64,000 nucleotides of DNA, taken from positions 1 to 64,000 of the forward strand of contig JBDOQK010000042.1 in NCBI GenBank assembly GCA_040437565.1, written 5' to 3'. The notes below the pieces were generated by a model. That model made no database searches, was not told the origin of the DNA, and saw only the letters and a program-made list of their open reading frames with translations. Shown here in pieces: positions 2,243 to 41,165 of this stretch. Within the stretch, counting starts at the first letter, position 1. Each line of letters opens with the position of its first letter. Source of the stretch: Albugo candida (Eukaryota). Both the position numbers and the translations under genes were made by a program.

Positions 2243-4267
2243 CACTGCACACCACCTATAATCTGTAACGTTTTTAGGCCTTAGTGAATATACTACTCTT
2301 CACGCATAAATCATCGCATAACAAAAACAGAGATTTTATATGATAGATACAGTCTAGCGCTTCAAAACAAAAGGCTTCGATTTTAAATTAGATCATTTTT
2401 GGATAATTTATGAGGCTCTAAAAGTTGCCCTGTTTCTCAAGATTTAACTATTATATACAATCAAAGCGTGAACTTTGGCCGCCATCAGTGGGCAAATTAG
2501 GGTTTAGGGTTTGAGTAAAAGTGTAATATATTATCTTTTTATTATACTTACAGTTCATACAGTAGTTACTAAAGCATTGCTGTCTGTGTGAACTGAGTCT
2601 GGAACTCTTCGATGTGATCGGTACTTTTTCATAGCATATTCCGTGAATTTTCCGGTTAGATCTTCCCGACACACATCCATATAAAGGAAGCACTTTCTAG
2701 CATGGCGAATGATTGTTGCGAGCGACAATGAGGCAAGTGCTTTCGGAGCTGTCGCGACCAATCCTTTTCATGTGTAATCGCACTTTTCCCTCGCGTATCG
2801 TTTTGCTTCCCCCACAAAAGCTTTGTATAAAATTAAATACGCAATGAAATTTGGGGTAAAATATGATGAGTTGTCCCGCCGCGGTGATTGTCTCTTCCAA
2901 CAAATCTTTTTGAGCTTTAAAGTCTGGCTGGTTAAGTATAACACTGCGGCCGCAGCAGCTACCTGTGTCACCACATTTACCCCGGCAATCCAAGCGAAGG
3001 TTTCTCGTCCTGAGGTTGCGTTCCTTTAGGAGGATCTTTATGCCTTTTAGTAGTCCGGCCAGAAGATGATCTGCGGGGAGTACCAAGGATTGTGATGTCC
3101 CATCTCCAAACATTCCATTCCGCATCACCGGTTGCTTTCCTCCCGGTCCAAAATTCATCCGTTGAGACACGAGAGCATCTTCAGCAAATGCTGCGTGGCT
3201 AGTCCCATTGTCGAAAGCGAAGAAAGCTTTTGCGTGGGGAAACTGAGCATCGAAAATGGTAATTGCAGCATCCCGGACTTCCCTTTGAAGGTCTTCCGAA
3301 GTCTATTAAACATCATAGTTCTTGCCGATAATGTGATTAGGCAAGCCTCTCCTGGAAGATTGCTGTGTTGAAGCTTATTTTTTGCTCAAAGCTAGTCGAC
3401 CCCCTTGAATAAGACAGAAAATGTTAACTCTTAATAAAAGTAATGAGTTGAAAACTCTAGAATAAGAGACTTACCACAATCACTCTGGAAATCGATGACA
3501 TGTATCGATCTCCCAGCCCCCTTCTTGCGCAGTGGCTGCTCGCCATCAGGATGCCATACCTTCTTCTGGCCATCATGGGCGGCAAGTACGCTTTCATCAT
3601 GCTTCACTAAGATGATGGCATCTCTGGCAGGCCAAATCTCCGATTCCATTTCCGGTCCAAAACATTTCGGCATAAATGGCTCATAGATTCTCATTTATTC
3701 CAAAAACTGAGTACTATATGCCACAACAACTTTTCGTTTATTGCCATCAACGTACATGCCTTTCCTCACTTCTGAATAGCGTAGACCAAGTAACTTCATC
3801 TAGTGGGTCACAGTGCTGAGGTGGATTGATGCGGTGGGATCAATTTCTGGAAGTATTTTCTCGTTGACATGCTTGGTAAAATCCGTTGGTACAACGCAGA
3901 ATTTTTTTGTTTCGAAGGTAAAGCCGCACATCTGCAATGATATCTTCATCCTCTAATAAACGGATTGTTTAAACATGCTTTCCCTGCTTGCTCTCGGGAA
4001 AATAACCAGTTTCAAGATATAAACGTCCCATGCAACGAAGCATCTCGGCAAACCAACGCCCTTTTCAATTCGCCGCCGTAATTATTTGCGAGGCAGCAAC
4101 TCTCTATTTTGCAATCACGATAGACCATTAATAAATTAATAAAAATTGCGCTAGAGAATGTGCAAGTGAATGAACTATACCTGGCTGACGCAGAGTATAA
4201 GCCTGAACTATCCTGCAATAGAGGCAAGACGCAGCCGCATAATTTCCTCCTGCGATTCATTTTTTTT
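2243..4267 (-). mobile_element. Degenerate IS630-Tc1-mariner DNA transposon, copy A; other end lost in gap
   Basis: TA then CACTGCACACCACCTATAATC terminus at 2243. Transposase fragments LVKHDES, QPLRKKGAGRSIHV, FAFDN, CCGRSVILNQPDF, FYPKFHC, KKYRSHRR. Frameshifted; homologous to 55185-57404. Confidence 0.88.
3404..3474 (-). other. Predicted 71-nt spliceosomal intron in the transposase
   Basis: GTAAGT donor and TTCAAG acceptor. Splicing gives DCGGRLAL, matching intronless DVCGRLAL in the 31053-34228 element. An equivalent intron is at ~56334-56402. Confidence 0.7.
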
Positions 4268-4989: not shown

Positions 4990-7340
4990 CACTCAGACCA
5001 GACTTATTACCGCTCACGCCTTCGTATCTTTAAAGAGTTGATCTACTGGAGAAATTTCGTTTAGCTGAACCCTATTGCAATAGGCCAAGAAAAACCGTCA
5101 GAAGCTGATCAAGCTGTGCGGGATCATAGCACTGCCGTTGGTAAAACCAAATATAGGCGCCGAATGTGCTATAGATCCCCGATACAGCTGATCCTGTTGG
5201 TGTTGAAGATGCTTGATCGAATAGTCGTCGATTGCGATCCGTCCAGATGAAATGTATCGCAATGGAAACCAATGAAAACTAAAGATCCTCCAACACTACC
5301 CTAAATGGCTTCCATATGTCACGGAGGAGAGGAAGTTGTAGACACGGTATGTGCGACCGCTTAGGTCGAGCTAAAAGGAAAGCTATGTACGATGGAAACA
5401 GGTCTTCCCAAATTGGGTATGTCCCACTACAGTCAAAAAACAGATGCTGACAACTTTCCACCTCACCACAATGCTTCTGTGTGCACAAGATGATTTCCGG
5501 ATGAGCTTGCTTCATAAACCAGAACCGGGATCGCACTGGTAGAATTGAATATGTCAGTCGGAGCTGAATGTCCGAGTAGATTGGTAATAAACGTCCGCGA
5601 GGACGTTGAAAACCCTTTGAGAAAACCTTCACCCAAGTCTAAGCAGCTGTCCGGTCTCTCTCCGGTAAGTGCAGCAACATTGGGTGCGGCTTATCCGGTG
5701 GTTGTGCTTTACTAACAACTCAAAAGAGTTGATTCCGAGGAATATTTGGGAACAAAACTTTCTTATCCGAAACTTGAATGTCAAAATGTAACGGGTGAGC
5801 TCCGGAAGTGGACGCTCAGTGCACACCAACACACCCTATGGTTGAATCGACGAAGAATTTGAGTAGCTTCGACGTACAATCGTCGCAAAAGCTTGGTGGT
5901 GGAAACTTCAGCTGGATTGCCATCTGAGTGCGTACTGGAACGCAAGATAAACTTCGAAGACGAATCAAACCAAGTTGATCTTCCACCGAACAAGTCACGC
6001 AAAGAACGGATACGAAACGCTTGAGCGAACTGCATCCGAAAAGCACGCGCAGGTTCAGGGACCGTTTTCATACATCGACGATGAGCAACAGCACTAGTAG
6101 AACGTTGTCGCTGCTCAAGGTGAAGATGAATATGCATATAAAGCCACACAGGAGCATTTTACATAACTATGTATTGCTCCTGCGATGACAAAGTCGTCGG
6201 TGTGAGCTCCCATGTTTTTTAACTTCACCAAACGCACGTCTGCTTCCACCATGATGACGCTACATTCCAACGATACATGGTACCATGCCGTCGAGGTGAT
6301 AACGTTTAGATATCAAGCGGTTTGAACGGTCCAAAGCTGGGTAAGATGGTCTTCACCATCTCTATTCCAGTCAGTGTCCAGTTGCTCGGAACAGCCGTAC
6401 TTGAATGGAGCGCAAATTGTTGGAGGAATTGGATTCGTTGCTTCTTTAATTGATTTTCGATCATCGAAACCTTTAAATTACCTTGTGAATAAGGAAGATA
6501 TAAAAGTTTCGATGGAAATAATTGCATGTCCGTTGAATCCCGCTCGTACTTTCGACTCAACACAAATCGATTTAACATCGATTGCGAGCGTCGCAGTAAA
6601 TGCTGCGGGATATGTTAATGTGCCGTAAAATGCCATAATCGGGACATAACCATAGTTTGCGAAACGATCTTCTAGGAATTCAATCATCAAATCACCCACT
6701 GGTGATTGACTGAAAGGAAATCCTAAATACTCGACCGACTCGCAACGTGATAGAACTTTCAAAAAAGGGAACGGCTAACATACTTGGCGACAATTTAGAG
6801 GAAGTAAAGTCGACTTGGTTAGATTTATCTTTGCTCCTGAACCATCACAATAATGATGAACGATATCAAGCTGAGCCTCTACTCCACCGACCGAAGACGA
6901 TAACAAAGTCGAGCCGTCCGCAAAGAATATACTGGTTGATGTATCCATTGGAGTGATACAAATACCAGGGCCATCGTTCCTCCGCAATAAATTACCCAAC
7001 GGCTCGATAATTGTGAGAAAGAGCAATGCGAAGAGTGGATCAGCTTGTTCCCCTCCCCGAGATGGAGTGGTCCTCGGTGAAAGCGTTTCACTCAACAACA
7101 ACGAAACAGACGTGTTGGTGTATAGAAGCTTTGTCCAGTTGATAAACGAATTTCCACAATTCATTTTCGAAAGAACTGCAAATATGTACGACCATTCCAG
7201 TCGATCGTACGCTTTCTCAAATCGAGATAGGTCATATATGCTTCTTCACCACGATAAGTGATCAAATTCTGTAGATCACTTATGTACCGTAAATGGTGGT
7301 GGATAGATCTGCCTCTCAGAAATGCCTTTTGATCTTCGGT
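4990..7340 (-). mobile_element. 5'-truncated degenerate non-LTR retrotransposon (L1-like ORF2: RT plus C-terminal zinc finger)
   Basis: KAYDRLEW, SFINWTKLLY, QADPLFALLF, FFADG (RT active-site region), SGAKINLTKS, YLGFPF, CTQKHCGEVESCQHLFFDC, IWTDRNRRLF. Confidence 0.88.
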
Positions 7341-10241
7341 TACGTCTCATAACTTAAGTGTTCTATACGAGAAGACAGATAGACGCAGCAGTTTTCTATT
7401 TCGTCACATCTCGGCAATGCAGGCTTTGTTTTTTTATACTAGTGCAAGCAAAATCCACGTTTCACGTAACCGGTTCTTGTGCGCATTGGCACATTTATGA
7501 CGATGCGGTGAAGTGGTCACGCTGATGCTGCATTCGTTTCATTAATTGGACTTACAGTTAGAGACGTCTTTGCTCCTACATTTACTTTATTTCGATAATT
7601 TCTGACGATCTGAATGAGGCCTTCACTGGAGCGATCTGAGACATTTGTATATGGCAAACATTTAACATTACCATGCCAAAAATACTTTGCAAAAAAAGCT
7701 TAATATTATTATATCATTCATGTCACTGTGATAATACTCGTGGTGCACCAAGAATAAGACGGATAAAGACCGACTAACGATTCGAACTGTTCGTTAGTCA
7801 ACTTCACCAGCTCAAAACTATTTGTATAAACTGTCATGACCTAGGAATGCCGAATGTATAATTGCCATCACAGCGCTGCTTCGATTTTCTGTTGGATGTA
7901 GAATATCGTTGTTGTGTGGCCGCTCACAAAAACTGTGTTGCGTTTTGGATGTACGAAAAACAGACATGACTTTTGTTGATTAAGATCTTGAAACTTAGTT
8001 ACTCGAAGGCAACTAATGGTGTTTTTAATAGGTCGTGGTCTATCATAAGATGTCAGTTTTAATGTATTCCATTCACATCACTGCGGGTGCTGCGGTATTG
8101 TTTCTCTTTGATAAAACCAAGCAGACCTTATCATTCATCAAAGTGACCAGGGATCGAAATTTTTCACCATNNNNNNNNNNNNNNNNNNNNNNNNNNNNNN
8201 NNNNNNNNNNNNNNNNNNNNNNNNNNNNNNNNNNNNNNNNNNNNNNNNNNNNNNNNNNNNNNNNNNNNNNCTACAGCTGAAAGCAAGTATGAGGATACAA
8301 AGATCAAACGACGGATATGTGAATATGCGACTGATTTTAAGAAGAAAACAGCCTCACCGTGTCGCGATATTGCATCCAATGGTTTTAAAGGTGCAACCTC
8401 GAAGACTAAATACGGATTTGGTAAGACGAATGGAATAAGCTTTCGTACATATGGTATGGTCTGTCAGTAGCATACTTATAAGGGCTCTTTTTTTTGTCAA
8501 TGAGAACATGGAGCGGATGAATGTGCAGCATTTGATGGTGTCACTTTCACCAGATTGGTGCAAAAATAAAAAATATATAGGTGTGGTGTTCACTTAATCG
8601 CAGTAAACCACTTTTTAATGTAAAATATGCATTTAGGTCGACATAGTCATCGCACTTAGGATACGGACATTAAAACGCGCTTGAGAAATGGATCTTGTAC
8701 GGACATGCTACCAAAAGCTTGACTTTCTATGTCGTTCGACAGCCTCCGGTGAAGAAGACCACGAAAATGTAAATATCCTCAATAAAGTATAATATTTTTT
8801 ACCCCGTTTTATACTTTTGTATATACATAATAACTTTTTCTTCACGCACTCGAAATCTAGAATGATGGAAAACTCCCATCCGCGAGCAATGAAATCTCAT
8901 TCAGGAAGTTCACTGTACCACAGAGTTAGAAAAACCTTATCCGGGATACAGGCTGATCAGTAGTATGCAGGCTTCAATCATGCTTGTATAAGATGCTGTT
9001 TGACATGTCTGAAGACAACCTTTTCACAATGATATACTATAAGGGATTGCTAAACTCACCCCATGCATTTTGTTAACCAATCATATTTCATCATTTTAGT
9101 CAATCATTTTTGATTGATTTGATAAAAGTTAAACTTGATCCAGGACGCAATCTGCAACTCCTGGCATTGCATACAGACGAATATGCACTAAGGTGCATAA
9201 GGTCATGGCTGTGAGTACTCTTATCTATCTCCAACTGCCGAGCCCCTGGCTCCCTGCGTTTTGAAGTGACTTGGAAAAACAGTTAGATATTTATGGCTTC
9301 GTCTCCTTGCGTTTTCGGGGCGATCTGGGTCGTGATAACTACCAGCATGCTCGCACTTTAAGACTTTTAGTCGCAGTTCGTTCTCAGGACGGTTTCCGAC
9401 TTTNNNNNNNNNNNNNNNNNNNNNNNNNNNNNNNNNNNNNNNNNNNNNNNNNNNNNNNNNNNNNNNNNNNNNNNNNNNNNNNNNNNNNNNNNNNNNNNNN
9501 NNNGTATGGATAGGGCAATGTGGAAAGCATTATCATCGTATGCGACACAATCACCTGTATGGTGAGGTTTAATGAGTCGCGCAAACTTGCTGAGTACATA
9601 AAGAAAGAGTGCGCATGTTGGCGTCCGATGTCTGATTGCTGAACGACTCTATTTTGCTGGTTTTCGATTTGAATAAGCCCGATGCGTGCGTTATACGACA
9701 TATTTAGACATTTAGACAGATAAGCAGTCGCAAATACCAGACATTAGAATTGATCGTGTTTCTAGTTTACTTCTGAGCTCACAAGTATTTCATCACGAAG
9801 AGCCTCTGAATAGCACTCAGATTCATCCATAGTCTCTCTACGGCAACATCCCGATTTCAATTCATCAATCTATTACTGCCGGAGTCTTCTGGGCGGCTAT
9901 ACATGGCATAGTAGGCTTCTGGATGGAACTTACAGTGAAACCGCTCACTAAGCAATTGGTCAGTCGGATCAAAACCTCTTATGCTGATAACGCACGTATA
10001 AATCAGTAATCGATCGCTTCGGGATTCCTCAAGTGTTCAAGTGCCAAATGTACAGTGACCTAGTGCCATGAAGCATGCAAGCGACATGGTGTCTTGATAT
10101 ACATATGTGTTCAATTGTGTCAAGTATACAACCTTTCGGATTCTTAGCGAGCGATATGGATAACAAAAACAACCAGAGGTGCAATGATGGCTTATAGGTT
10201 CAGAAGACGTGTATTTTGTGCTTGGTTGTGATTATGAGTGC

Positions 10242-13659: not shown

Positions 13660-14350
13660 AGAATAATAATTTACCGACTTGCATATTTCCACCTACCAAA
13701 TGGCGTCTGACCAATCAGATTACGCGGTACTTCCACTCCACATTTTAACATTTCCACCCATCTTTTAATGGGAGTGGCACTTCTATCCAAAGTATTGATT
13801 GGTATTCCACCCCTGGTTGCATCTAATCTGCCATGGATGGCATTAATCCAAGAGTAATACAAATGGGCTATCCTTATCGGGTTCGTAAGAGGTAATGGAG
13901 GGCTCTCTTTTTAGTAAAAAGAATTCTGCTGGTAGAAAGCTTTCGCAAACGTGCATTCGTTCGCATCACAGGGCACTTCGAGATTCGAGCAATGTAAATA
14001 AACGGTATAGCGGTATAAAGATGCCAAGCGCGCAGAAAACAGCTACTTGCAACATCTCGAAACAATAGCCTATTACATAACAGCACCCTCGCATGGCATC
14101 TGTGCGCTTGAGAAAGTTGGCTATTCTAGAATCAGGATCATAGAAAGGTGCGCAAATATGAGTTCTGATACCTTCGATCGGCATGCAAGACTGTGGAACT
14201 GTGGCCATTTCTTGGAACAGGGGGTGACTACCATCGTAATATGATTGGTCAGAAGCCACGTGGTGGGCGGAATAGTAACTGCCATAATTTGACTAATCAT
14301 GACTGATAGAAAAAGCAATTGCCGCGATATTATTGTCCTATTTGATATAT
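13660..14350 (-). pseudogene. Degenerate secreted-protein gene, possibly CHxC/CCG-like
   Basis: Hydrophobic leader LLFLSVMISQIMA, then frameshifted FHS/QSCMPIEG and further Cys clusters. Several frameshifts. Confidence 0.3.
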
Positions 14351-16175
14351 TCCCTAATTTTGGATGTTATTCAGTTATTTATTGTATTGCAATCTGTCTC
14401 GTCTGGTTTTGGCGTAAGGCAGCCACAACAATGTACTGTCAAAGAATACTTAATATAGCATTCTAGGAATATGGACATCTTAAGAGACGGTCCTTGGCTC
14501 ATAAAAAGTGTATATTACCTCTAATACAAGCCTTTTTTACCTTGGAATGATTTCTGTCGCTTTTGTGCTCTTTTTTTNNNNNNNNNNNNNNNNNNNNNNN
14601 NNNNNNNNNNNNNNNNNNNNNNNNNNNNNNNNNNNNNNNNNNNNNNNNNNNNNNNNNNNNNNNNNNNNNNNNNNNNNATATTACCTCTAATACAAGCCTT
14701 TTTTACCTTGGAATGATTTCTGTCGCTTTTGTGCTCTTTTTTTATTGTACACATAATGAAATGCTCTATGAGGAGAACTTCTGGCATCTGGGAAATTTGT
14801 AGTTGCGAGTGGGCTAGACGGCGTGCAGGCGGGGACGAAGGTAGCGGTAAGCGCGGATCGTGGGTGAATTGAGAGTGAGCTCGGCTCCTATCTCGCGTGT
14901 TGTGTACAGTCAGAGTCGTGGATGAAGAGGGGGTGAGCTCAGTGCCCGCCTCGGGGGTTGCGTGTAGTGACGGACGTGGGTGAAGGAGAGAGTAGCGTGA
15001 CTGGCGGCTCGCGTCCTGCAGGGAGCAGGAATAGGCATGCGTGTTCAGAAACAAGAGTTCTCGGCCTGCGCCTCGCGTCGTGCAGGTAGGCAGGGTACGT
15101 CGTAGCCGGGCTCATGCGCACGTCTGGTCAACTGCTTCGGCGGGTGCGACGGCGAGTACAGCTATCCAGCAGCGAAGCACACGATACGTAATAACCGAAT
15201 TATGTGAGGAGCGGAAATAGATTAATTGCGAAGCGCTGCGTCCCACTAACGCCTCACCGGATATTTTTGCTGAGTAGCTCAAGGTAGAGCACTTCCTGCA
15301 TCGACTCACCCAGCTAGGTCTGTAGCCACTCACTCCACATCCTCCTCTCTTTGACCCCCAGATAGTGGCAAACAATTGACTCTCATCCCGCACTCAACTC
15401 CACCTAATCGAAACCTCTGTGCTTGATGCCCGCTCCCGTACCCACATCCGCCTAACGGAATGTCTTCACGTAATGCACCACTTCCGCAAATATCGCACGA
15501 TTGCTCTCTCTCCATTCAGNNNNNNNNNNNNNNNNNNNNNNNNNNNNNNNNNNNNNNNNNNNNNNNNNNNNNNNNNNNNNNNNNNNNNNNNNNNNNNNNN
15601 NNNNNNNNNNNNNNNNNNNCCACTAACGCCTCACCGGATATTTTTGCTGAGTAGCTCAAGGTAGAGCACTTCCTGCATCGACTCACCCAGCTAGGTCTGT
15701 AGCCACTCACTCCACATCCTCCTCTCTTTGACCCCCAGATAGTGGCAAACAATTGACTCTCATCCCGCACTCAACTCCACCTAATCGAAACCTCTGTGCT
15801 TGATGCCCGCTCCCGTACCCACATCCGCCTAACGGAATGTCTTCACGTAATGCACCACTTCCGCAAATATCGCACGATTGCTCTCTCTCCATTCAGGAGA
15901 ACTGCTGACATGTGGGGAATTTGTAGTTGCGAGTGGTATAAAGAGCGTGCAGGCGAGGACTACTCGTCAATGCAGGAGAATGGGGTTAAGAGGGGGATAA
16001 ACGTTGTGTGCGCTGAATGACAACCGGTGGTTGGTGACGGATGCGTAGCTGAGTGCGGGCTATATGCCTACGTGGGAATAATGGAAGAGGTGTGACGTCG
16101 TAATATGCGAGGTTAATGTTTTACGTAAGTGTCGCGTGATTGGCGAAGATGTAGTTGCTGCGTTGCTGTTGAAGG

Positions 16176-16451
16176 ATGTTTGACGCTGATGACGTTGTCG
16201 ATGAAGAGGCATGGAGGCTGTAAGTCGCTGGCACCGAGTTTGGATGTCGAGGTATGAGAAGTGCGGTTTATCATTGGTGGGTGAGGAGTCAGACGCTAGG
16301 CGCTGATGAACCTGGCTTTCTGGTCGTGTGCAGGTCTGCCGAGCTAGGTGACACGCATGCGAAGGTTGTGCTTGCTGATCGAGAAGGTGGCTATTCTTGC
16401 GTTCGTGTTTGGAGGCGAGGAAGTCTAGGCAGCTATGAAGACGTCGGTTGA
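16176..16451 (+). pseudogene. Small unknown ORF (92 codons, one internal stop) overlapping the capping-enzyme start
   Basis: MFDADDVVDEEAWRL*VAG...YEDVG*. Its stop (16449-16451) lies just downstream of the ATG at 16435 (17-nt overlap). Confidence 0.35.
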
Positions 16452-18255
16452 GGCAAACTGTTTCGTCGTCTCGTCGGGTACGGGTTGTAGCAAAATCGAG
16501 TACGAGGTGAGCCTTGACGGCGAGTTTTCGAGGTGCTGCTGCAAAATGCCTGGAATTGATGAGATGCAGCTGTTCGACGAAGAGAGATATGCGGCTAGTT
16601 TGCGTTAGGGCGAGACGCTGATCCCTTTTTTTGCGCTAGGTTGACGAGAGACGCGAACGGTTGGCTGATCGAATCTTTGCTGAACAGGGTCGACTTGCTA
16701 CCACGGTGGCACCGCGCAAGACGTTTCCGACATTGAAGGAGCTGAGCGTAGACGTTGAGGGTGTGCAGATGGCATTCTGTGGGTCGTTGCAGAGTTATAG
16801 AGTGTTCTTCGAGGAGTGACGTTGCGGATAGGCAAGTGGATCTGTAAGGGTAGACGCTTCGAGCCGGAAAGACGGTACGCTGTCTAGTTGGAGTACGCTT
16901 CAACATGTCCGATCTCTGACTCCGACAAGGTGGACACCCTCGTTGCGATACATNNNNNNNNNNNNNNNNNNNNNNNNNNNNNNNNNNNNNNNNNNNNNNN
17001 NNNNNNNNNNNNNNNNNNNNNNNNNNNNNNNNNNNNNNNNNNNNNNNNNNNNNTTGGAGTACGCTTCAACATGTCCGATCTCTGACTCCGACAAGGTGGA
17101 CACCCTCGTTGCGATACATACGCGCTTTTACCACGTCGAGCAGTTTGCAAAGGTGCTAGGTGGGCAGACGTGTGCGAGGCTGCATGCAGTCGCTTCACCG
17201 GTCAAAGACGTGCGCGTCGTCCGGGAGTGTGACGTGTCTTTTCGCGTGATCGTCTACGAGGAGCATGCCTGGCTGGTCGAGACGATCTCTATTAGGTACA
17301 ATTGCTGAAGCACCCCCCAGCGGAATGTCGCTGGGTTCCGCGTGAAGTCTGTGCTCGATCTGCTTCCACCGCTGTCGATGGTACTACGCGTAGAGAAACT
17401 TCCGGATGGGTCACTTGTGCTGATCGACCTACTCGCGATGGTGGTATAACCGGGCAGACGTCCAGCTCCTCCGACGCGTACCGAAATATGCTGCTCCATC
17501 GTTACGTCCCGGACGACTTCCTGTTCAGCGAGGAGCTGGACTCGGTTGAGCAGGCGCAGGAGGCAAGGCGATTAGCGTCGTACGGGTCAGACGGAGTCAT
17601 TGTGATCGCCAAAACGTGTTCGCTTACGTTTATTTGAAAAGGCCGACGCTAAACATGATGTGAAAGCGTGCCGGTCAGTTCGTATCGGTAGAGGAAAGGC
17701 TTCGAGGCGTGTAGGTGTGGCGTCATGCAATATGCGAGCCATTTCCGTCTACGAATCATCGCTCCAACCCCCTTCCAACGGCACCGCTGTGTTCTTCTCG
17801 TACATGTCTAGTACAGACAAGGTTAATGCCAACCCTATGTACGTTTTCGACAACGTGATGTACATCCTACAGTCGAAGGACGTCTCGTACCTATCCCTCA
17901 TGTACCGCGTCTCGGCGTACTCCTTCTTCGTGTGTACAGTAATATACGAGTGGACCTCCATCCGCGCGTACCTGCGANNNNNNNNNNNNNNNNNNNNNNN
18001 NNNNNNNNNNNNNNNNNNNNNNNNNNNNNNNNNNNNNNNNNNNNNNNNNNNNNNNNNNNNNNNNNNNNNNNNNNNNNCTCGTACCTATCCCTCATGTACC
18101 GCGTCTCGGCGTACTCCTTCTTCGTGTGTACAGTAATATACGAGTGGACCTCCATCCGCGCGTACCTGCGAGTTCTAGTCATTGACGTGAATACGAGAAG
18201 GCTTCAGAAACAGGACGTCACTGTTCTCCAACTCCCAGTGTTATCTGTTCTGTGA
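16435..18255 (+). pseudogene. Decayed virus-type mRNA capping enzyme (triphosphatase, guanylyltransferase/OB fold, truncated N7-methyltransferase)
   Basis: Motifs in order: IEYEV (16495), RYAV*LEY (16873, same frame), FRVIVYEEHAWL at the KxDG position (17240), LRVEK (17384), LVLIDLL (17414), SDGVIV (17587), YLKRPTL (17631), VYE...STDKVNAN..V..NV (17810), VIDVNTRRLQ (18178). Confidence 0.65.
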
Positions 18256-19345
18256 TCGGTGATTCGCCTTGACGCATATGAGCGCATGTACATGCACGTA
18301 TTCAAAGACTAATTGGGTGAGTATATGCTGCACGTGACCATGGATGAATTCGGGACTGGGTACGGTCCCATTTGATTACGTATTGTTGTACCTGACTGGC
18401 GGGATTTTTATCAATTTAACCAGGAATGTGTACAGACAAACGACGCGCGACTCTCACTTTTAAGAGACATTGCCGTGATCTCGTTTGGTTCATTAGAGCG
18501 CTTCAAAAAAAAATAAAAACCTCAATATAATACCAATATTGACGCATCAACCAAAACATTCTGCCATCTTTGAAGTCGCACCTACACGGACGTCTCTCAT
18601 GGAAGCACAAAACCGTTAACTTTGCATTGAAAAACACATGATGACAACGATGTATGTGCTGAGGAAACTATGATGAGATGAAAGCGAACATTACCACGCA
18701 AGAAGATGGATGTGCCACAAGAATTGATATAGAAAGAAAGCGTTTCTTTTCGCTTATTAGCTCGAGTCTCATTTCCTTTTGGCTAGGCCGTTGGTGACGT
18801 GTTTTAAGCGCTTCCTTGAAGCTGTTTCTCGCGTCATCTATTAGTTACAAGTTGGCGGTAATGAGCAAGACTTGAAGTCAGTAATGGTAATTTCTTCTGC
18901 AACTCTGCATGTTTTTGATCAATTGGCGGAGATATGCGAAGCATTTTCTCTTTATATTCTGGATAGCAGTGAACGCAACCGCTATTCCCTACGCTTTCCG
19001 GTATAACACGATGCGACCTAAATGCCCTTCACGATAACACGTGTAGTAGGTGATTTTTGCAGTAGATATACACATTAGATGAATTTCATTTTTCATAACT
19101 AAAGCCTGTTTGAGGCTACTGAAGACGCATCGCTCTCGAATGCAAACCATGGACGCGCTTCACAATCATATAAAGCAGACAAGATACGTAAATTTGTATG
19201 AACACAATCCGACCTTTGTATTCTTGTTTTCTCGGAATATGATCGATCCGCTGACTTGAATGTCGCCGATAGTTCGGAAGACTTGAGTAGGTTCTTGTCA
19301 ATGTACTACTACGATGTCGTTGATCGCAATAATTTGCATGCGCTA

Positions 19346-27339: not shown

Positions 27340-30300
27340 TTTTGAGGGAATAAAAATTTGGGTGGCAAAGGTTTCAGCACCCCCCCCCCGCTTCGATAAG
27401 GATCGGATAGTACGAGGGCGGAACTTCACCAAAAAAATATCAATTTCACGTAGAATTTGAGATCATCAAATGAACATAGTACTGAAAAGAATTACAGCAA
27501 ACACGCATCTCGCTGTTTGTCGAAATCTATGATATGCAACGCGTGCATTCGAAGTCAACTTTTCTAAGTACATTTATCCCAACAATTGCACGGGAACTTT
27601 TCGCATTTAGGTCGTTGACCACTTTTGAGACAGCTAACTTACCTTTTTCTAAATTCCAACCCTGAGACGTGAAAATTATGGGAAAATGGTCCCACAGGAA
27701 TACCTGGATCTTCTAACTTTAGTATTCTCTAGGAACATAGGAAAAGATTCCTGTACTNNNNNNNNNNNNNNNNNNNNNNNNNNNNNNNNNNNNNNNNNNN
27801 NNNNNNNNNNNNNNNNNNNNNNNNNNNNNNNNNNNNNNNNNNNNNNNNNNNNNNNNNTTGAGACAGCTAACTTACCTTTTTCTAAATTCCAACCCTGAGA
27901 CGTGAAAATTATGGGAAAATGGTCCCACAGGAATACCTGGATCTTCTAACTTTAGTATTCTCTAGGAACATAGGAAAAGATTCCTGTACTTTCCATGACT
28001 TTGATGTGTCAAATTTTTCCAATTGACCAACCTGAAAATATGAATACTTTTGGATAAAAGATTGCAAAATGTAGGGAAACGACTTTCAGAGGTTTAGCTT
28101 GTCAAGAATGCGTAATGGGCATATGGTTTGAATCTATGTTCCAGTGGACTGCATAAGGATCACGTCATCGTGCTCAGATATAAAACTCTGTAAGAAATGG
28201 TTCGTTACTCGATAGAGACAGGATAATATTTTTACTAATGACGACAGTAATTATCATCGGCTGGGAAAGGAGAGGCACTCATTGATAGCTCAATTCGAGA
28301 GCACATATGTGTCATGTGAGGTTTCTTGCTGGTGAGTGCTAGCGAAATCAAATGCATGAACAGGTACATATGACGTCTAATACGAAGAAGAACGAAGCAG
28401 ACGATCTCTCCAGCTTTTGTATAATATTGCGCATCAGACACGCTTGCACAAAATATACCGCGTCGTGCATCATCCCACATCATGCAATTGGAAGATATGT
28501 CATATTCAAGTGTAAAGCATCGGAATTTTCGTCAAATATCGTATCAGATGTACATCGGTAATGAACAAACTCGTGATTATCCCAGTCGAAAAGTGAACGT
28601 CGTGGTGCTCATGTATCCACGCACTGTCGATACCCGCGGACTTCAATTTAAACGTGTAGGTACCAGTTTTAGTGAATATGTGGCGTATATTTGGGCTGGA
28701 TTGTTTTCATTCTCATTTCGTATAAATAAACACTTATATGTCACCGATGTTTTAGGCTTAGGAGGAAGGGATTATTATGCTTTGAACGTAACAAACGTTG
28801 CGCTAAAGCTCAAGATAATGTTCGCTTCCGAGAAGGATAGAGCACAATCATAGAAGAATCATGGACACGAATCCATGTATCATTTACTTATACGCCATGT
28901 GACGTTTCATCTTCTCCAAATGTCACAATAAACAACTTTTTTTTGTAAGTTGAACGTGGAATAAACGCACTGCATGCGGATTGAGTATCACGTCATTAGT
29001 GTTATTACTCCTAGGATACTATTTTTATCGATTTGCTTTGTTTTTCTATCTTGATGCAAAAATCTAATGAGATTCTTTGTTTGAAGCCTTCGAAGATCAT
29101 CCAGCGAAAGAACGAGGTAATCTGCGGTAAAGGTATAGAGAATATTCCTGAATCTTAATCTTCCAGCTTAATGAGCACATTACTAATTCAAAGCATTGTA
29201 GCCATGCCTTAGCGTACGGAGATCGATAGCTTTGTAGTGTATCACACAGTTGTTTAAAAGAGCTTGTTCGTTCATGCACCTTAAAAGCTCAACTCTACCA
29301 AGATAAAGGAGTATCAACACTTCATTCATGAGGAATGAAGACATCCTGTTTAATAATTCTTGACTTTCTTAAAGCTGGTTCGTTGATAGAAACGTTTATT
29401 GGAGCATACGCCTGTGACTACTATAAAGACATGTTGTTGAGCATCTAACTTCACCCAGGTTTATTTGTTTTGAGTCAAGTAATTGATGCAAGGTTGCGCT
29501 TTTTCCAACTGGGAGGTTTTATATTTTACGCCCTCTTGTTGAGATTGTTGGAGCGTAAACGCTACCAGGATTAAAATGCTTTCAAAGTCTGTTTTCTTAG
29601 ATCATATGTCTTCGCGTGGGACATTATTCGTAGAAGTCATCGAAAAATACTTTGTACAAAGGCATGTGACCTTCCAGGTCAATCTCCACGCAACACGTAG
29701 CGCGCGATTATAAGATTCGATGTGGTTGAGAAGAAATAGAAAGCGACACTAGACATAACGTAGACGTACAATTGGATCTTATATGAAGCATTTTTTGTCG
29801 AGCAGCCGAAGCTACAACAGAACCGCAACGGTGAATTTTGCTGATTACTAACAGCAGTACTCCACGAGAAATAGGTGCGTTAGCCTGGCGTCAATGCGTC
29901 TTATCTCACAGAGAAAGCGGATCAGCAACCTAATTTACAATATTTTTTCTCTCATGATGGTCTTCACTAAATTTGCTAAGGAAGTTTGATATATTTTCAT
30001 CCCTGAATTACCATATTGAATTCATTTCGGATGATGTCGTCGAAGATGAAATATAAGCGTGTACATGGTACCGACAAAGAAGAACGATCTTCGCTTGATT
30101 TTGAGGGTGTAACACTACCATCAACGTCAGGAGTACGCTTTCATACATCATGTAATGAGATGAAAAATGTCAAGAGTAAAAATATCAATAGCAAAAATCA
30201 CACCGTAGAAGGAGTGTTTGCGGACACACCTCATTCATAGGACGTCGGATTCCTCAAACATTATCGATTGACGCAATAATGGATGGATGGTAAGGGTATC

Positions 30301-31052: not shown

Positions 31053-34000
31053 CAGTGCACGACACCTATAACCAGCACCTCCACCCGGTGCGCAAATTTT
31101 TTTTGAGACACCCAATTACCCACTTAAACAAAAATATATCTCTATATCTTAAAAGTAGATTGCCGTTGCTTTCTGGCAATAAAGTCGGATTTTTGCAAAA
31201 TTCATTTTTGACGAAGTTGAAAGCCTTTGAAGTTCGGCAATTTTCGTGATTATGTATGGAGCTATGGAAATTTGGCCGGACATCTAAAAAAACACTTTTT
31301 TAACCAATTAGAACGGACCACCTAAAAATAGATAATTGTTTTAGCCAAGTAGAAAGGACCATTTAAAAATAGATAGTGTGTTAGAAATCTGATACAGACT
31401 TACATATTTTCTTTGCTGGTTATGTGTATATCTGTAATCTAGTTTAAAAAGTGCATTAACGTTCATAAGAACAGAGACTGGAATGCGACGGTGTGAACGG
31501 TACTTCTTCACTGCATATTCGGCAGCTTTTCCACTGAGATTTTTACGGGAGACATCCATGTACCGTTGTGTCTTGCATGCCAATCGGCGAATTGTTGTCA
31601 AGCTGATTGAGGACGTGGCAGAGGGGACAGTTTCTTGCAAGACAGCCCAGGAGTAATTGCAGTGCTTCCGTGCGTACTGCTTTGCGGCGCCCCAAAAGTT
31701 CTCAATCTAGTTCAACTCGCAATGAAATTTGGTGTAAAATATAATTTTATGCCCAGCTGCTGTAATCACCCCCTCAAGTAATCCACGCTGGGCCACAAAA
31801 TCTGGCTGTCGGGACATGACAGTGCGAGCGCAGCAAGAAGGAGTATCAGAGCATCTGACATCACTTGGGCAAACCAAACATAAGGCAGGTTGCCAAAGAC
31901 CACGTTCGCTTAAAACAGCCTTGATTCCATTTGGTTTACCACGTAATTCCTCATTCTCATAATCGTCTGAGCAAACTATGCTCTGAGGCACATTGTCTCC
32001 ATAAGTCGTTGGCCTTGAGAAAAGCACAGATTAATTGATTGTTNNNNNNNNNNNNNNNNNNNNNNNNNNNNNNNNNNNNNNNNNNNNNNNNNNNNNNNNN
32101 NNNNNNNNNNNNNNNNNNNNNNNNNNNNNNNNNNNNNNNNNNNTCAAGTAATCCACGCTGGGCCACAAAATCTGGCTGTCGGGACATGACAGTGCGAGCG
32201 CAGCAAGAAGGAGTATCAGAGCATCTGACATCACTTGGGCAAACCAAACATAAGGCAGGTTGCCAAAGACCACGTTCGCTTAAAACAGCCTTGATTCCAT
32301 TTGGTTTACCACGTAATTCCTCATTCTCATAATCGTCTGAGCAAACTATGCTCTGAGGCACATTGTCTCCATAAGTCGTTGGCCTTGAGAAAAGCACAGA
32401 TTAATTGATTGTTTACAGTAACTACGGGGATAATTTATTTAAATCATTCCTCATTTTTGGTTGTTTTCCACCAGGGCCCAAGGTTCATTCTCTTTGCAAC
32501 AAGTGCATCACCAGCAAAAGCAGCATGACTGGTTGCATTGTCGAAGGCAAATAGATCTTGAGCACAAGGAAATGAGGCATTGAAGATTGGAATAGCTTTG
32601 TCACGGACTTGTGCATTCAGATGCTCTGCTGTCCATCAGCCATCGTTATTCTTTTCAGGCTTCATGTAAACACAGGACTCTATTGGCATATCAGGATACT
32701 CAAGCTGCTTTGCTTCATCGAGCGCCAAGCGCCCGCAAACATCATTCAGAAATTCGCTAACGTGAAGGGAATGTCCTTGTTTTTTTTTTCGTAATGGCTG
32801 CTCTCCCTCCGGCAGCCAGAGTTTTCTTTGACCATCATTTGCTGAAAAAACGCTCTCATCATGCGTAACAAGTATCAATGGTTCCACACCATCTGCAGGC
32901 CACGCCATAACTTCCATATTTTCACCAGAAAAAACTGGAAACATAGGGTCATATGCCTCCATTAGTGCAAGAAACTCATTTAGGTATGCCACAACATCAG
33001 CACGCTCATATCCATCACTGTAGAGACCTTTGCGGACCACTCGAAAGCCAAGATTCATTTCTTTCACCCATCGCATAGCAGTTCGGGATGATATTGTTGG
33101 TGGTGGTGTATAACCGAGGGAAGGGAGAATCACATCATTAATGTGAATTGTAAGGTTGGTGATGTCAACTGCGAATTTATTTTTGCGCAAGTAGGTCTAT
33201 AATTGCCCCACAATGTCCTCATCCCACTAAACGACAAACGCTTTGCGTGTTTTCCTTTTCGGACATTGGCAGCTTGTGGTCCTTTAGAAATGCACGTGCC
33301 AATGTGCGTAAAGCACGTGAGAAGTATCCGCCCTTTCCTATGCTTGTGATGACAAAGTCACTTGCGCTCGTGCGACTTCTCCCATTTTTGCAAAGGCGCA
33401 GGTACAAAATCAAAGCTTGCACGCGTAGCTGCTCTGCCCCATTAAGCTTCTTTGCTTTGTCAATTTTAACAGTCTTGACAATCTTCGCCAATTCTTCTAT
33501 TGCACTGTCAAGGCCCCTCTCATCCCACAGGCTATCTTCAACATCGTCAGTTTCGGAATCTTCGTCAGCAGAAACTCCTGCTGCCACAGGCTCTTGCCGC
33601 ATAAAATAGCTGGTCAGCTTTCCTGAACCTTCTGCTGCCTTGCGCTGATTCTGTTTGTGACGTCGACGTGTCCACGGTGAATCACCACCATAACGAAATG
33701 GGCGGTTGGTGGTTGGTACTGGAGCAATAAGAGCTGGTGACATCGCCACCTCCAACTATTCAACTTCATCTTCAGTCTGCTCTTCTTCCTTGTCACTTGT
33801 TGGTTCCTCTCCAAAAATTTCATTCTCCATGTCACTACCATCTATATTGTTTCCACTGTCAGGATGCTGTGAAAATGGTGGTGAACCGTGATGACTTTTT
33901 TCTGCGTTTCTGGTGTTCTGCAGGTGTTTTTTGCGCTTTGATAGCTGTACCATGTTGCCTAGCGAATGTTTTTTGCTGTTTAGAATGTTTGAGGGTGTTG

Positions 34001-34313: not shown

Positions 34314-37300
34314 AATACTCAGAACGCGGTCGACGAACTCCTTGGCGAGAACAATTACTTTAGATGGGAGTTCAACGCGCGTATGAAGCTAATGAAGAAG
34401 AGTTTGCTGCATCATAGTCACTTAGCGAAGATCCTGCAGCTTTGGCAATCTGTAAAGTCAACAACCTTAAAGCCTTCGCAATCATTTCAATGTCAATTAG
34501 CCCGAGTCTCCAGGAAATGATCAGAGGCGCTTGTACAGCCTCCCAGTTATGGGAGATTCTAAAGAAGTTTTACCTTCGAAATAGTATGCACGAGAGAGTA
34601 CGAAACCGGCGAAGACTTCATGAATTCCGAATGGAATAGAGTCAGAATATTATAGAATATTTTATGAAACTTGATGAATTATGCCTTTCGATGCAAGCTT
34701 GTGGGGATGTACTTAGCATGCATGAGCAAATAGTAATATTGCTTGGGAGTCTCTCGGATGAGTACGATCCCATTATTGAAATTATCGGAAATGCACAAGG
34801 GATAGATCTTTTCAAACAAAAGAAATGCTGCATCGGGAGTATGCACTATTGGTGAAATAAAAGACAAGAGAAATTGCTCTCAAAGCAAAAGCAATGAAGA
34901 AGTCGGATAGATTCAACGCAAAAAAATCTCTTCAAAAGACTTACAAATTCGAAGGTAAATGTTATCACTGTAACAAAGGTGGACATAAAAAGGCTGAATG
35001 TTAGAAAAATGTAAATCACAAGAAACAGTACGGTGAACAAGCATTCACAGTGTGTGAAGACATGGCTGAAGGTTGGCTGCTCGATAGTGGAGCAAGCTGT
35101 CATATGTGCCCATTCAAAGAAATGTTCAGTGAACTCCGACCACTCAAGAACCAAACATATATCTCTATTGCGAATGCAAACAAAGTTTCAGCAGGAGACA
35201 TTGGTACAGTTCCAGTTATTCTGAAAAACAAAATATCAATTCGTATTGAAAATGTACAATATGTACCAGATTTGGATCGCCGATTGCAATCTATTCCAGC
35301 ATTAGCAGAAAAAGAACTTAATGTCTCTTTTGGAAGAGGAGTTTGTGAAATTAAAGACAACGAACGATTTGTAACTCAAGTCACAAAAATGGGGAAGGTT
35401 TATGTGGTAGAGTGTGCTATAAATGAATTAGCACTTGTTAGCACTTCGGGTAAAGAGATACATGATCAACAATCATCAAGTTCCAGTGTATGGCATGTCC
35501 GGTTGGGACATTTACCTACCAAGCAAATTGAAGCTTTGTAGCACTGCGTTGATGGTTTCAAGATGAAAGATGAAATCGAAACGAGAAAGAGACGAAGAAG
35601 TCATTTGTGAAGGATGTATCAATGGAAATCGTTTTTGCACGCGTTCCCAAAGTCACGCTATGGTAAAAATCAAGTCCGATCTTCAACCTATAAATAGTGA
35701 CGTAATGGGACCAATGGAAACGAAATCTCAAGGTGGAGCAAGCTTATGGTAACTTGCATTGATGATTACTCTAGGTATGTAGTGTCATTCGACACAAATC
35801 TGAAGTGCTCGATCGGTCCTCAATTTCAAAGCAATGATGGAAAACCAACTAAATTCGAAAATTAAGTGTATCCGAACCGACAATGGTGGGGAATTTATCA
35901 ACACTCGATTTGCGAATATTTGTAAAAGTTCCGGTATTATGAACCAAACAACAGGTCCGTATTCGCCACAGAAAAATGGACTGGCTGAACGAATGAATCG
36001 GACCATTACGGAACGTGCGAGATCCATGATGAATCACATGCTAGTAAAGAAGAAGTGGTGGGCTGAAGCTATGAGTACCGCAGTTTACATCACCAATCGA
36101 GTTCCATGTGCCACCTACCCAGACAAGACACCATGCGAGATGTGTTTTGGGAGCAAACCATGTCTTACTTATGTATGCATATTTGGTGCCCGAGGTTTTG
36201 CTCACATTGAGAAATCACGACGGAGAAAGTTGGATAAGAAGGCGGTCAATGTATGTTACTCGGATGTTCGGACAATATGAAAGGATTCCGCGTATGGAAT
36301 TTTGAGTCGTAGAAAATCGAGATTACTCGTTTAGCGCAAATTCAAGAATTAGCCGAGACAAAATAAGTTCAGGTTGTTATTGGAGATAAATCATCCGAAC
36401 GAAATCGAAATGAATGTCAGTGTGACGAAGTAAGCGAACAAATACCGATCAGGACAATTCCGCATGTCGAGAGCATGGATGTAGATCCGACAGAAGCGTC
36501 AACAAATGCGAATGAAGATTTGACAAGATATTCGACTCAGGGGCAGTGTCGTTTGGCTGCTTATCAGACATCTCCCAACGTCGATATGGATTTTGCGGAA
36601 GACGATTTTAGCACTATTGAGGCCATTGTGCCCAGAGGAGACTGGATAACCTCGAAAGCTACCCGGTTTCTGGAAACCCTCAAGTTGGGCACGATGTCCA
36701 TCTGGCACTTCCACTAGGTCAATCGTTGCAAGCAATAGTACAAGTGGAATCGTCTACTTCTATCGTTCCAGTAAAAAATCTAATTCCATGAACTGTCCAT
36801 CTAAAAGATATCGTATCGAATACGAACAAGGGGATGCAGCGATAGAAGCTCCATCATCCTAGCAAGAGGCCGCGAAGTCACCTCAATCGGAATTATGGTA
36901 TACTGCAATTCAGGCCGATCTTCAAGCACTGAGCAAAAAACAAACGTGAACGGCTGTAACGAAAAAGGCTATCGGAACCAAATGGGTTTTTACAATTAAA
37001 CGAAACGAAGACGGTAAAGTTGAACGGTTTAAGCCAAGATTGGTGACATTTGGATATCGACAAACTTATGGTGTTGACTACACAGATACGTACTCCCCAG
37101 TCGCGAAGTGTACTCAATTCGTATTTTCCTTGCAATTTGCTGCCATCAAGGGCGTACGATTCATCAGTATGATGCTGATACGGCCTTTCTTAACGGTTAT
37201 CTGCAAAAAGATGTGTTCATCTATCCACCTCAAGGTGTTGAAAGCAAGCCAAACCAAATCTTCAAACTCAGTCGAAGTTATATGGACTTAAACAAGCAGA

Positions 37301-38388
37301 TGTGACTTGGTTCAAGACAAGATCAACTGTATTTGCTCAGATAGGGTTTCCAAAATGTCTATCAGGCTCATATATGTTTGTGCGCAAAGATTCCAAGTCA
37401 TGGGTTTATGTCAAATTATATGTCGATGACATGCTGATCGGAGCCAAAACCATCGACTCGATCAAGAAAGTTGCAAACGAACTTTCGAGTCACTTCAGTC
37501 TAAAATTCTGGGAAACGTGCGATTTAGCCTTGTTATTGAAGTGGAATACAAACAAGAACTGCGACAAATGAAGATCAGTCATGGAGCTTGCATACGAAGA
37601 ATGGTCGAGAAGTTCAACCAAGTAAACGCGAAGTCAGTGTTTAACCCAAATGTTCCGGGGCTTTGTTTAACGAAATCAGACGAAAAAGATTTGAGAATGG
37701 AAAACCGATCATATCGCTCACTTGTCGACTCTCTTCTGTACATCGCAATGGGCACAAGACCAGATATTGCTTTCACGGTTTGCCAGCTCATTCGACACCT
37801 GGAGCAACCAAGCAAACAATACTGGAATGCAGAAATCCGTGTTTTTGCCTTACCTGAAATCTACCGCAATGAGAGGAATATGTCATGAGGCTATGCCAGG
37901 AATTATCGACGTCAGTACTTACAGTGATGCGGATTGGGAAGCGACAAGGAGACAAGAAGATCAACCTCCGTTATAATGGTGATGATAAACAACTCTCCCG
38001 TGATATTCAAATCAAAACTACAGCAGAGTGTGGCTCTCAGCACAGCCGAAGCTGAGTACATTGCTATCTCGTTATGCATACAAGAAGTCATGTGGGTCAA
38101 AAATTCATTATCTTAGTCAAAGGTGAGGATCGATGATTCAGTGATCACTCATGAAGACAACCAAAGTTCAATTGCAATTGCCAACAACGATGGAGAGCAG
38201 AGTCGAGCGAAACATATCGACATACGGTACCATTTTGTCCGTGAATAAATAAAGGCCAAAACGATCAAGCTTTAATACATCGACACCAAGTTTTAGTTGG
38301 CTGATTTTCTGACCAAGCCAGTGCCGAAGAAGAAATTTGAATGACTTCTGATTAAGTCCAACATCACGAATTTATCCTCCAAGGGGAG
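34305..38388 (+). pseudogene. Copia gag-pol polyprotein, disrupted
   Basis: NNYFRW, zinc knuckle CYHCNKGGHKKAEC (~34960), WLLDSGASCHM, WHVRLGH, IRTDNGGEF, PQKNGLAERMNRTI, YVDDMLI, YSDADW, LSTAEAEY, KHIDIRYHF, ADFLTK. Confidence 0.95.
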
Positions 38389-40924: not shown

Positions 40925-41165
40925 AGTGGCGGATTCGAGTTTTGGAGCGGAGGTAATTTGGGAAACCAGAAGGAGACTTTTAGGATAGGAAACCGCTGTA
41001 GAAGGTATAAGGAGTTGTCCGGTCTTGTCTAAGAACATTCGAGAACAATTCTTAAAAGTTCTCAACGTTGCCGGATCAGATTTATCATGTTTTCGTGGTC
41101 ATGCGATATTCAAACCGTCACCAATCATCGTCTAGAATAGGGAAAACGTTGCACTGATTCATGAA

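Follow-up and report, generated by a model that had tools for sequence, protein, structure and literature searches.

What kind of DNA forms the GC-rich island in the stretch of Albugo candida DNA analysed here (the window: 64 kb, positions 1 to 64,000 of contig JBDOQK010000042.1, assembly GCA_040437565.1)? An earlier note, made from the sequence alone, had placed the island at 14760..18255 and had proposed a candidate endogenous viral or plasmid element with compact, overlapping genes, one of them for an mRNA capping enzyme. Here, we found that the island holds a single broken gene of a trifunctional capping enzyme, and we consider it likely, with a probability of roughly 0.85, that the island is a dead fragment of a foreign viral or plasmid-like DNA element lying in transposon-rich nuclear DNA. 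The foreign origin proposed in the note is borne out by homology, by the fold of the family and by contiguity with the flanks. The features of the broken gene are as follows.

16244..18256, + strand: pseudogene of a D1-type trifunctional mRNA capping enzyme (triphosphatase, guanylyltransferase and first part of the methyltransferase), truncated at its 3' end (tblastn, frameshift-aware alignments)
16426-16428 (TAG), 16885-16887 (TAG), 17306-17308 (TGA) and 17661-17663 (TGA), + strand: in-frame stops in the alignments to the intact relatives P0002 and P0020
16606-16608 (TAG) and 18260-18262 (TGA), + strand: additional stops, in the alignment to P0020 only
17243..17263, + strand: destroyed guanylyltransferase motif I (family RVKVDGE, here RVIVYEE; the nucleophilic lysine and the Asp-Gly pair are gone)
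18178..18207, + strand: degraded S-adenosylmethionine (SAM)-binding motif of the methyltransferase domain (family V(V/I)D(V/I)G(S/T)GR(L/M)Q, here VIDVNTRRLQ)
18257..18280, + strand: right island edge, where homology stops at family residue ~555-562 of 732

The gene family was identified by a phmmer search against 1.84 billion representative proteins, with the read-through of 17054-17446 as a query in which TGA was written as X. Ten proteins were found at E <= 0.001. The best match, P0002 (733 aa; 59% identity, E 2e-37), runs gap-free through the TGA at 17306; seven of the other eight matches are 653-756 aa long and 30-35% identical, and the shorter matches were P0008 (236 aa) and P0011 (423 aa), at 41% identity. 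By tblastn, P0002 matched the pseudogene with E 6e-79. In the frameshift-aware alignments, residues 2-555 of P0002 correspond to 16244-18256 with 275 of 542 positions identical, nine frameshifts and four in-frame stops, and residues 1-562 of P0020 (732 aa; found by a profile search) correspond to 16244-18280 with 360 of 552 positions identical (65.2%), nine frameshifts and six stops. The frameshift sites lie near 16283, 16371, 16603-16627, 16695, 16817, 17438-17441, 17623-17629, 17688-17691 and 18220. Since all of them are covered by gap-free contigs of the public runs X6 or X20, the breaks are not errors of this assembly.

The local copy has also lost residues that are needed for catalysis. 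We compared it with an alignment of seven full-length family members (A1; 46% mean column identity). Lysine K283 is replaced by I, D285 by Y, G286 by E, R136 by T and R471 by S, while E217 and R302 fall on stop codons; D531, G533, R536 and Q538 of the SAM motif are invariant in A1. The last ~170 residues of the family were not matched anywhere in the window (tblastn with the C-terminal parts of P0020 and P0002; best E 0.39), and no uninterrupted frame with the catalytic residues is present. With the KxDG lysine and other invariant residues lost, and with the frameshifts, stops and truncation added, the local copy is, judged from its sequence, one dead, truncated capping-enzyme pseudogene whose product would be enzymatically inactive. 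The TGA at 17306 is common to P0003, a 70-aa gene call from another assembly, which is 94% identical, breaks off at this very stop and also reads RVIVYEE. Within the "coding" region, contigs of run X11 lack single nucleotides at 16373, 16632 and 17281 and five nucleotides at 17394, and they carry an insertion behind 17689. Such 1-nt and 5-nt differences match the prediction of neutral decay.

One could argue that the gene still works and is read via short introns, programmed frameshifts or a variant genetic code, as some of the frame changes fall at GT...AG pairs (e.g., 16606-16639 and 16817-16887) and the periodicity of GC content at third codon positions (GC3) persists. However, in the alignments to the intact relatives the would-be introns behave as coding sequence, and for this reason a gene model with short GT-AG introns, read exon by exon, was dropped. 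Moreover, two different stops, TAG and TGA, stand inside aligned blocks, none of the invariant residues K283, D285, G286, R136, R302 and R471 is retained, the C-terminus has lost ~170 residues, and strains differ by 1-nt and 5-nt indels. A working gene is therefore scarcely credible.

The virus-like gene packing described in the earlier note did not hold, as all open reading frames (ORFs) of this part, up to 18255, are frame fragments of one gene. What had been called a 92-codon ORF relic (16176-16451) does overlap the ATG at 16435 by 17 nt with its end at 16451, but it is not open: it is broken by TAA at 16221-16223, and the open stretch comprises only 16224-16448 (75 codons). This "relic" is the N-terminus of the pseudogene, and the ORF 17732-18252 is the continuation of the same gene. 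The gene does not start at the ATG at 16435 either; homology begins at ~16244. The label of a capping gene proved right, since the fold of the intact homologues resembles that of vaccinia D1 and of further capping enzymes from giant viruses.

The function of the family was assessed on its intact members. Invariant in A1 (7/7) are, in the N-terminal part, two ExE motifs (E88, E90 and E217, E219) together with R134, R136 and K149; in the guanylyltransferase part, K283-x-D285-G286, D397-G398, K413 and R471-x-D473-K474-x-x-P477-N478; and in the methyltransferase part, D531-x-G533-x-x-R536. We take these motifs to be the signatures of a triphosphate-tunnel RNA triphosphatase, a guanylyltransferase acting through a covalent lysyl-GMP (GMP, guanosine monophosphate) and a SAM-dependent methyltransferase. 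An AlphaFold2 model of P0002 reached a mean predicted local distance difference test score (pLDDT) of 71.7, with residues 1-78 disordered and strands across 85-220. When this model was compared to the PDB by Foldseek, full-length vaccinia D1 was matched over ~850 alignment columns (E 4e-20), followed by cellular guanylyltransferases (1e-7, including human 3s24 and Candida 1p16) and, for the first domain, the triphosphate-tunnel enzymes 7ns9 and 5a68 (E 4e-5 to 1e-4). The methyltransferase part matched the C-terminal domain of pNP868R of African swine fever virus (ASFV; 7d8u, 2e-5) as well as vaccinia D1-D12 (2vdw), Ecm1 (1ri1) and RNMT, with cap N7 methyltransferases at ~1e-4. The top matches in BFVD were the capping enzymes of pithovirus, marseillevirus, Tunisvirus, ASFV (NP868R) and entomopoxvirus (E 1e-23 to 5e-19). 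The intact family is predicted to be a fused triphosphatase-guanylyltransferase-methyltransferase of the D1 type, as the hallmarks of all three domains are found in the motifs and in the modelled fold. In the intact donor protein, the triphosphate-tunnel domain would remove the gamma-phosphate of the nascent transcript, the KxDG domain would add GMP via a lysyl-GMP intermediate, and the C-terminal Rossmann domain would methylate N7. Such capping would let an element which transcribes itself outside the nucleus make translatable mRNA.

Other searches did not recognize the family. Pfam gave nothing meaningful on ten exon-like pieces of the local copy, and with an 80-aa piece of it we obtained no match in a word-indexed search and no usable match in the ESM Atlas. 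No Pfam match was found for 13 family proteins, nine of ten in one scan and four in another; the tenth protein of the first scan, P0011, matched DNA_pol_B only. Among IMG/VR viral contigs there was no relative of the capping family. The sequence profile of A1 reached E 0.64 and 0.86 at best against the PDB, the alignment at 0.86 being to human guanylyltransferase 3s24 at motif VI.

Could the pseudogene be a decayed cellular capping-apparatus gene of the host, or part of an ordinary transposable element? The surroundings are full of transposon relics, and cellular guanylyltransferases and cap methyltransferases are among the fold matches. Nevertheless, the best fold matches are viral and have all three domains in one chain, while eukaryotic cells use separate or two-domain capping enzymes. 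Furthermore, the relatives adjoin polB and RNA polymerase genes. In agreement with the earlier note, no transposase, reverse transcriptase or terminal repeat was found within the island; an integrase domain is likewise missing, the sole repeat is a 66-nt direct repeat, and the island has no second copy in the window. Both a host gene and a transposable element are thus very improbable sources.

The next question is whether the island truly belongs to the host DNA. The window contains 18 gaps (between 4268 and 57279), each of exactly 100 N, and six of them are followed by an exact copy of the preceding sequence (66-277 nt). At the gaps 14578-14677, 15520-15619, 16954-17053 and 17978-18077 the preceding 66, 277, 66 and 94 nt, respectively, are repeated exactly afterwards, and contigs of the public runs cross these four gaps directly, skipping 165, 377, 166 and 194 nt. 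Two more gaps with duplicated ends lie at 27758-27857 (133 nt) and 32044-32143 (270 nt). Gaps of this type are typical of overlapping contigs which were scaffolded without being merged, and calls of ORFs or repeats across them are distorted. This is a practical warning for users of the assembly: six of the 18 gaps are false and the sequence beside them is duplicated. Three such artefacts lie inside the island.

15520..15896, no strand: scaffolding artefact; 100 N and an exact 277-nt copy of 15243-15519; contigs of X6 and X11 join 15242 to 15620
16954..17119, no strand: scaffolding artefact in the pseudogene; 100 N and a 66-nt copy of 16888-16953; 16887 is joined to 17054 in four of four runs
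17978..18171, no strand: scaffolding artefact in the pseudogene; 100 N and a 94-nt copy of 17884-17977; one X7 contig joins 17883 to 18078 ("between: not known")

In total, 737 of 3496 nt are scaffolding artefact. Owing to these three gaps with duplicated ends, the true island is ~2.76 kb long, and not 3496 nt. The island marked in the earlier note is therefore real, but its length was inflated.

Contiguity with the flanks was tested on independent contigs of the runs X6, X7, X11 and X20, among which there are at least two organism labels. X7 record 23 spans the left edge, joining 14375-14571 to 14737-14837, and the same joint occurs in one X11 and one X20 contig. The right edge is bridged by X20 record 13 (18078-18447), X6 record 20 (18093-18374) and X7 record 27 (18078-18341). 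An assembly chimera, or a contaminant contig scaffolded into host DNA, might be suspected since the region consists of small contigs chained by 100-N gaps and its composition is sharply unlike that of the flanks. However, every gap is closed by exact overlaps, and the gaps and both edges are spanned by contigs of the four runs. The island is therefore not a contaminant, and a chimera can be considered hardly conceivable. Homology to a gene of an element, continuity with host DNA and the presence of the same locus in X6, X7, X11 and X20 are all found here, as expected of an endogenous viral element (EVE).

Composition sets the island apart from the rest of the window, as the earlier note had seen by eye. 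The sliding-window analysis confirmed the abrupt shift: the best 2.8-kb segment, starting at 14767, has a GC content of 0.54, the maximum of the whole stretch, whose median is 0.414 (SD 0.029). GC content rises abruptly at ~14744-14770 and is back to 0.42 by ~18300. The G-rich plus strand described in the note was found over 15900-16900, where the GC skew is the strongest of the stretch (+0.30 to +0.49; SD 0.077, 700-nt segments), but not throughout: the skew is negative (-0.31 to -0.48) over 15241-15519, a sequence identical to 15620-15896, and ~0 beyond 17000. The preference for codons ending in C or G was borne out as well, as GC1/GC2/GC3 of the pseudogene are 0.54/0.42/0.67 over 485 codons in the frames set by homology.

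Upstream of the pseudogene the following features were distinguished.

14744..16243, + strand: upstream GC-rich part, apparently non-coding; ~1.1 kb are real after removal of the artefact 15520-15896; GC 0.49-0.66
14771..14836, + strand: 66-nt direct repeat, copy a, 85% identical to copy b; the only true repeat inside the island
15895..15960, + strand: 66-nt direct repeat, copy b (self-comparison)
15241..15519, no strand: C-rich block of opposite skew (-0.31 to -0.48), with an excess of run depth

The upstream part consists of a G-rich block (14744-15240), the C-rich block (15241-15519) and a second G-rich block (15897-16243), and the 66-nt direct repeat brackets the first two of them. In 3-mer composition it is the closest of 458 1.1-kb segments to the pseudogene. 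We infer that it is a part of the same foreign insert, and by analogy with the end of a relative's contig (described below) its G-rich blocks may be terminal or intergenic non-coding DNA of the donor. No match was found in 14744-16243 in Pfam or by tblastn with the proteins of L002, a metagenome locus with an intact relative. Thus, the upstream ORFs rich in W, R, G and V, which had been suggested as further genes of the element, match nothing. Tandem Repeats Finder returned 0 rows for 14678-16300, and self-comparison revealed no inverted repeat in the upstream region. In the C-rich block (15241-15519, identical to 15620-15896) the summed contig depth of X11 was 4028 and 1206 in comparison to ~28-580 in the other bins, and one X6 contig departs from the stretch at 15865, in the copy of this block. 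The C-rich block is probably a multi-copy repeat.

Intact relatives of the gene indicate from what kind of element the fragment may come. Seventeen members make up the P0020 cluster. Apart from P0020 itself, 14 of those listed were checked: two are 538 aa long and 12 reach full length (732 aa). Identity of the 12 full-length variants to P0020 is 96.7-98.9%, indels are absent, and the KVDGE motif is intact in each of them. To judge from this conservation, the P0020-type gene is being maintained. The contigs in seven listed rows of this cluster are 17,442 (twice), 17,444, 17,448 (three times) and 17,456 nt long. P0002 occurs on contigs of 17,624 and 17,851 nt, the longest contigs of the P0007 cluster have 14,625, 17,573 and 17,575 nt, and other intact family members lie on contigs of 19.6-28 kb. 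Several members come from named organisms: CCA27725.1 of Albugo laibachii Nc14 (in the P0002 cluster), CAH0521469.1, CAH0520257.1 and CAH0520256.1 of Peronospora belbahrii (contigs of 102-190 kb), TDH65860.1 of Bremia lactucae (97-kb contig) and KAJ3382885.1 of the chytrid Lobulomyces angularis (25.9-kb contig).

The gene neighbourhood was analysed in L002, the first 15.4 kb of a 23.7-kb metagenomic contig, with ten ORFs. Here, the capping gene lies near a DNA_pol_B gene (PF00136, 1.6e-38), for which archaeal and delta-type polymerases scored best in the PDB. The locus also encodes an Rpb2-like RNA polymerase subunit (PF00562, 3e-11) and a 463-aa protein with weak matches to D5/P4 primase-helicases (phrog_1156, 8.7e-5; TIGR01613, 0.0049). 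Five ORFs, the capping gene not counted, have no match at all. Neither a double jelly-roll capsid nor a packaging ATPase domain was found in the ten ORFs, which cover 15.4 of 23.7 kb and include the five without a match. No inverted repeat was found in the 15.4 kb and no promoter-like word is common to the upstream regions of the ten ORFs. The contig end is occupied by ~1.1 kb of non-coding, C-poor DNA with a skew of +0.44 to +0.47 in its first 800 nt; in 1-1100 a 94-nt unit is repeated at a 292-nt spacing and a 49-nt tandem pair is present, and this part looks like a telomere-like terminal region. In the Bremia protein P0011 a capping-like piece is fused to a polB piece, the latter being 41% identical to the L002 polymerase. 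The gene content of these loci suggests that the relatives' elements are non-cellular.

Adjoining the capping gene of L002 there is a 660-aa ORF (5603-7585, - strand) with a conserved N-terminal part of ~420 aa and a tail rich in Ser, Pro and Gly. It had no match in Pfam, PHROGs, NCBIfam or the PDB, and the ESM Atlas was uninformative; a single relative was found (48% identity), and AlphaFold2 on these two sequences gave a pLDDT of 30.5.

Is the island then a fragment of a conventional giant virus (Nucleocytoviricota, e.g., asfarvirus-like) and not of a small element? The fold is closest to giant-virus capping enzymes, and the core genes of giant viruses include those for DNA polymerase B, RNA polymerase, D5-like helicase and the capping enzyme. 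Passages of Gallot-Lavallee and Blanc 2017 (PMC5294986) moreover report core genes of giant viruses in 10 of 40 oomycete genomes (Phytophthora, Pythium), mostly asfarvirus-like, although the main text of that paper makes no mention of Albugo or of capping genes. On the other hand, intact relatives lie on recurring contigs of 17.4-17.9 kb in many assemblies, the other clusters lie on contigs of 14.6-28 kb, and none was seen on a large viral contig. IMG/VR contains no relative, the Pfam capping-enzyme models miss the family, and there is no second viral gene in the window: tblastn with the L002 proteins returned the capping gene only. We thus consider a giant-virus source unlikely, and infer that the donor was a small element of ~17-28 kb.

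Compared with known systems, the island is a familiar kind of endogenous viral element, from a donor lineage that looks new. The capping enzymes of vaccinia (D1), ASFV (NP868R), pithovirus and marseillevirus have the same order of domains (triphosphatase, KxDG guanylyltransferase, N7 methyltransferase); their ExE, KxDG and RxDKxxPN motifs are present in the family, and the fold agrees at E 4e-20 (PDB) and 1e-23 (BFVD). Unlike them, the family is without a Pfam model, its proteins have ~650-756 aa instead of 800-1400, and identity in the structural alignments is only 9-16%. The giant-virus EVEs of oomycetes, as described in part of PMC5294986, are likewise core-type viral genes fixed and decaying in an oomycete nuclear genome, whereas here a single truncated gene is found, whose nearest intact relatives lie on 17-28 kb contigs.

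A closer parallel may be sought in the cytoplasmic virus-like elements (VLEs) of fungi, of the pGKL2 type. According to passages of PMC6211774 and PMC13348850, these are 13-36 kb long, a D1-like capping enzyme, an RNA polymerase and a helicase are encoded on the elements themselves, and pieces of them occur in nuclear genomes. The A+T content of VLEs, as given in an abstract, exceeds 75%. Their polymerases are terminal-protein-primed and related to those of adenovirus-type viruses (Polisuviricotina), and the relevant passages of PMC13348850 report VLEs in fungi only, with oomycetes unmentioned. The proposed donor type, as read from the relatives, would similarly be a small element with a capping enzyme, an RNA polymerase and a helicase. 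In contrast to VLEs, the L002 polymerase matches PF00136 and archaeal and delta types, with no protein-primed type among the listed matches, no inverted repeat is present in the 15.4 kb of L002, and the GC content is 39-53% in L002 and 54% in the island. Mriyaviruses, giant-virus relatives of 35-45 kb (PMC11253617, compared by description only and from part of the text), are also small genomes with giant-virus affinity but about twice as large, and "capping enzyme" has 0 occurrences in the mriyavirus text covered. Published accounts of elements of 17-28 kb with this combination of genes, or of such elements in Albugo or in further oomycetes, were not found; the search extended to neither supplements nor subscription journals. 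The suggestion of an undescribed element is thus upheld as far as the donor lineage is concerned, which looks undescribed on the grounds of the Pfam and IMG/VR results and of this literature search.

From these comparisons a broader proposal can be put forward, tentatively and at somewhat less than even odds: that Albugo, Bremia, Peronospora, at least one chytrid and unknown soil eukaryotes carry undescribed self-transcribing dsDNA elements of ~17-28 kb, equipped with an RNA-primed-type DNA polymerase B, a D5-like helicase, a multisubunit RNA polymerase and a D1-like capping enzyme. Such elements would belong neither to the killer-plasmid VLEs nor to any family of giant viruses; they would persist to this day as ~17.45-kb molecules, and the island would be the nuclear fossil of one of them. 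As for the island itself, the captured piece most likely comprised one end of a small self-transcribing DNA element together with the capping gene. It may have entered nuclear DNA by end-joining of a fragment, with the 3' part lost at or after capture. Since then the fragment has most likely drifted neutrally, with indels that still differ between strains, and the high GC content, the GC3 bias and the skew would represent the composition of the donor, not yet erased.

Several observations weigh against the reading of the island as a foreign fragment of this kind. No Pfam model covers the family and the PDB profile search gave only E 0.86, so that the capping assignment is drawn from the motifs and the predicted fold. 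For the upstream 1.1 kb none of the comparisons made revealed homology, and its assignment to the donor is by composition only; within it, 15241-15519 has the opposite skew and may be a multi-copy host repeat. The nearest intact relative is only 65% identical, which means that the true donor is unsampled. There is no second donor gene in the stretch, and the nature of the donor is read from the relatives and not from this locus. Finally, the recurring contig sizes could also stem from integrated copies bounded by repeats.

The surroundings of the island (~41% GC) are rich in transposon relics, such as RVT_1 at 6778-7245, copia-type pol sequence at 35005-37568 and MULE at 48465-49052. Among the 80 ORFs of at least 95 aa in the window, only transposon domains and one weak WBP-1 match were detected. 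The polymerase, capsid, helicase and integrase genes that the earlier note proposed to look for were not found beside the pseudogene anywhere in the 64 kb, either by Pfam or by tblastn with the L002 proteins; the fossil is a lone fragment. Rfam gave 0 matches and ARAGORN 0 tRNAs over the whole stretch. A decayed copia-type pol occupies 35005-37885 (+ strand), with Pol_BBD, integrase (rve) and RVT_2 in several frames. The ORFs 2700-3302 and 31957-33196 (both - strand) have by eye a cysteine-rich stretch in common and look like one transposase-like family, for which Pfam gave nothing. The longest open frame of the stretch, 40277-41098 (- strand, 274 aa), has no Pfam match. Just left of the island there is a 38-nt inverted repeat (84%; 13687-13724 and 14235-14272, 510 nt between the arms); at 13677 and 13713 the contigs of three runs diverge from the stretch, and the repeat may mark the end of a dispersed element such as a miniature inverted-repeat transposable element.

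The island itself is ordinary: a dead viral fragment with no present function, whose value is that it points to live relatives. The family to which it belongs is missed by Pfam. Many public assemblies contain intact, conserved members of it on contigs of a recurring ~17.5 kb, and one metagenomic relative shares a gene cluster with core replication and transcription genes of the giant-virus type. If the ~17.5-kb contigs are whole replicons, they would, to our knowledge, be some of the first virus-like dsDNA elements to be linked to biotrophic oomycetes. They would then be by far the smallest genomes with a giant-virus transcription and capping module, would bear on the kinship of giant viruses and fungal cytoplasmic plasmids, and would offer a natural system for cytoplasmic expression in organisms which are difficult to transform.

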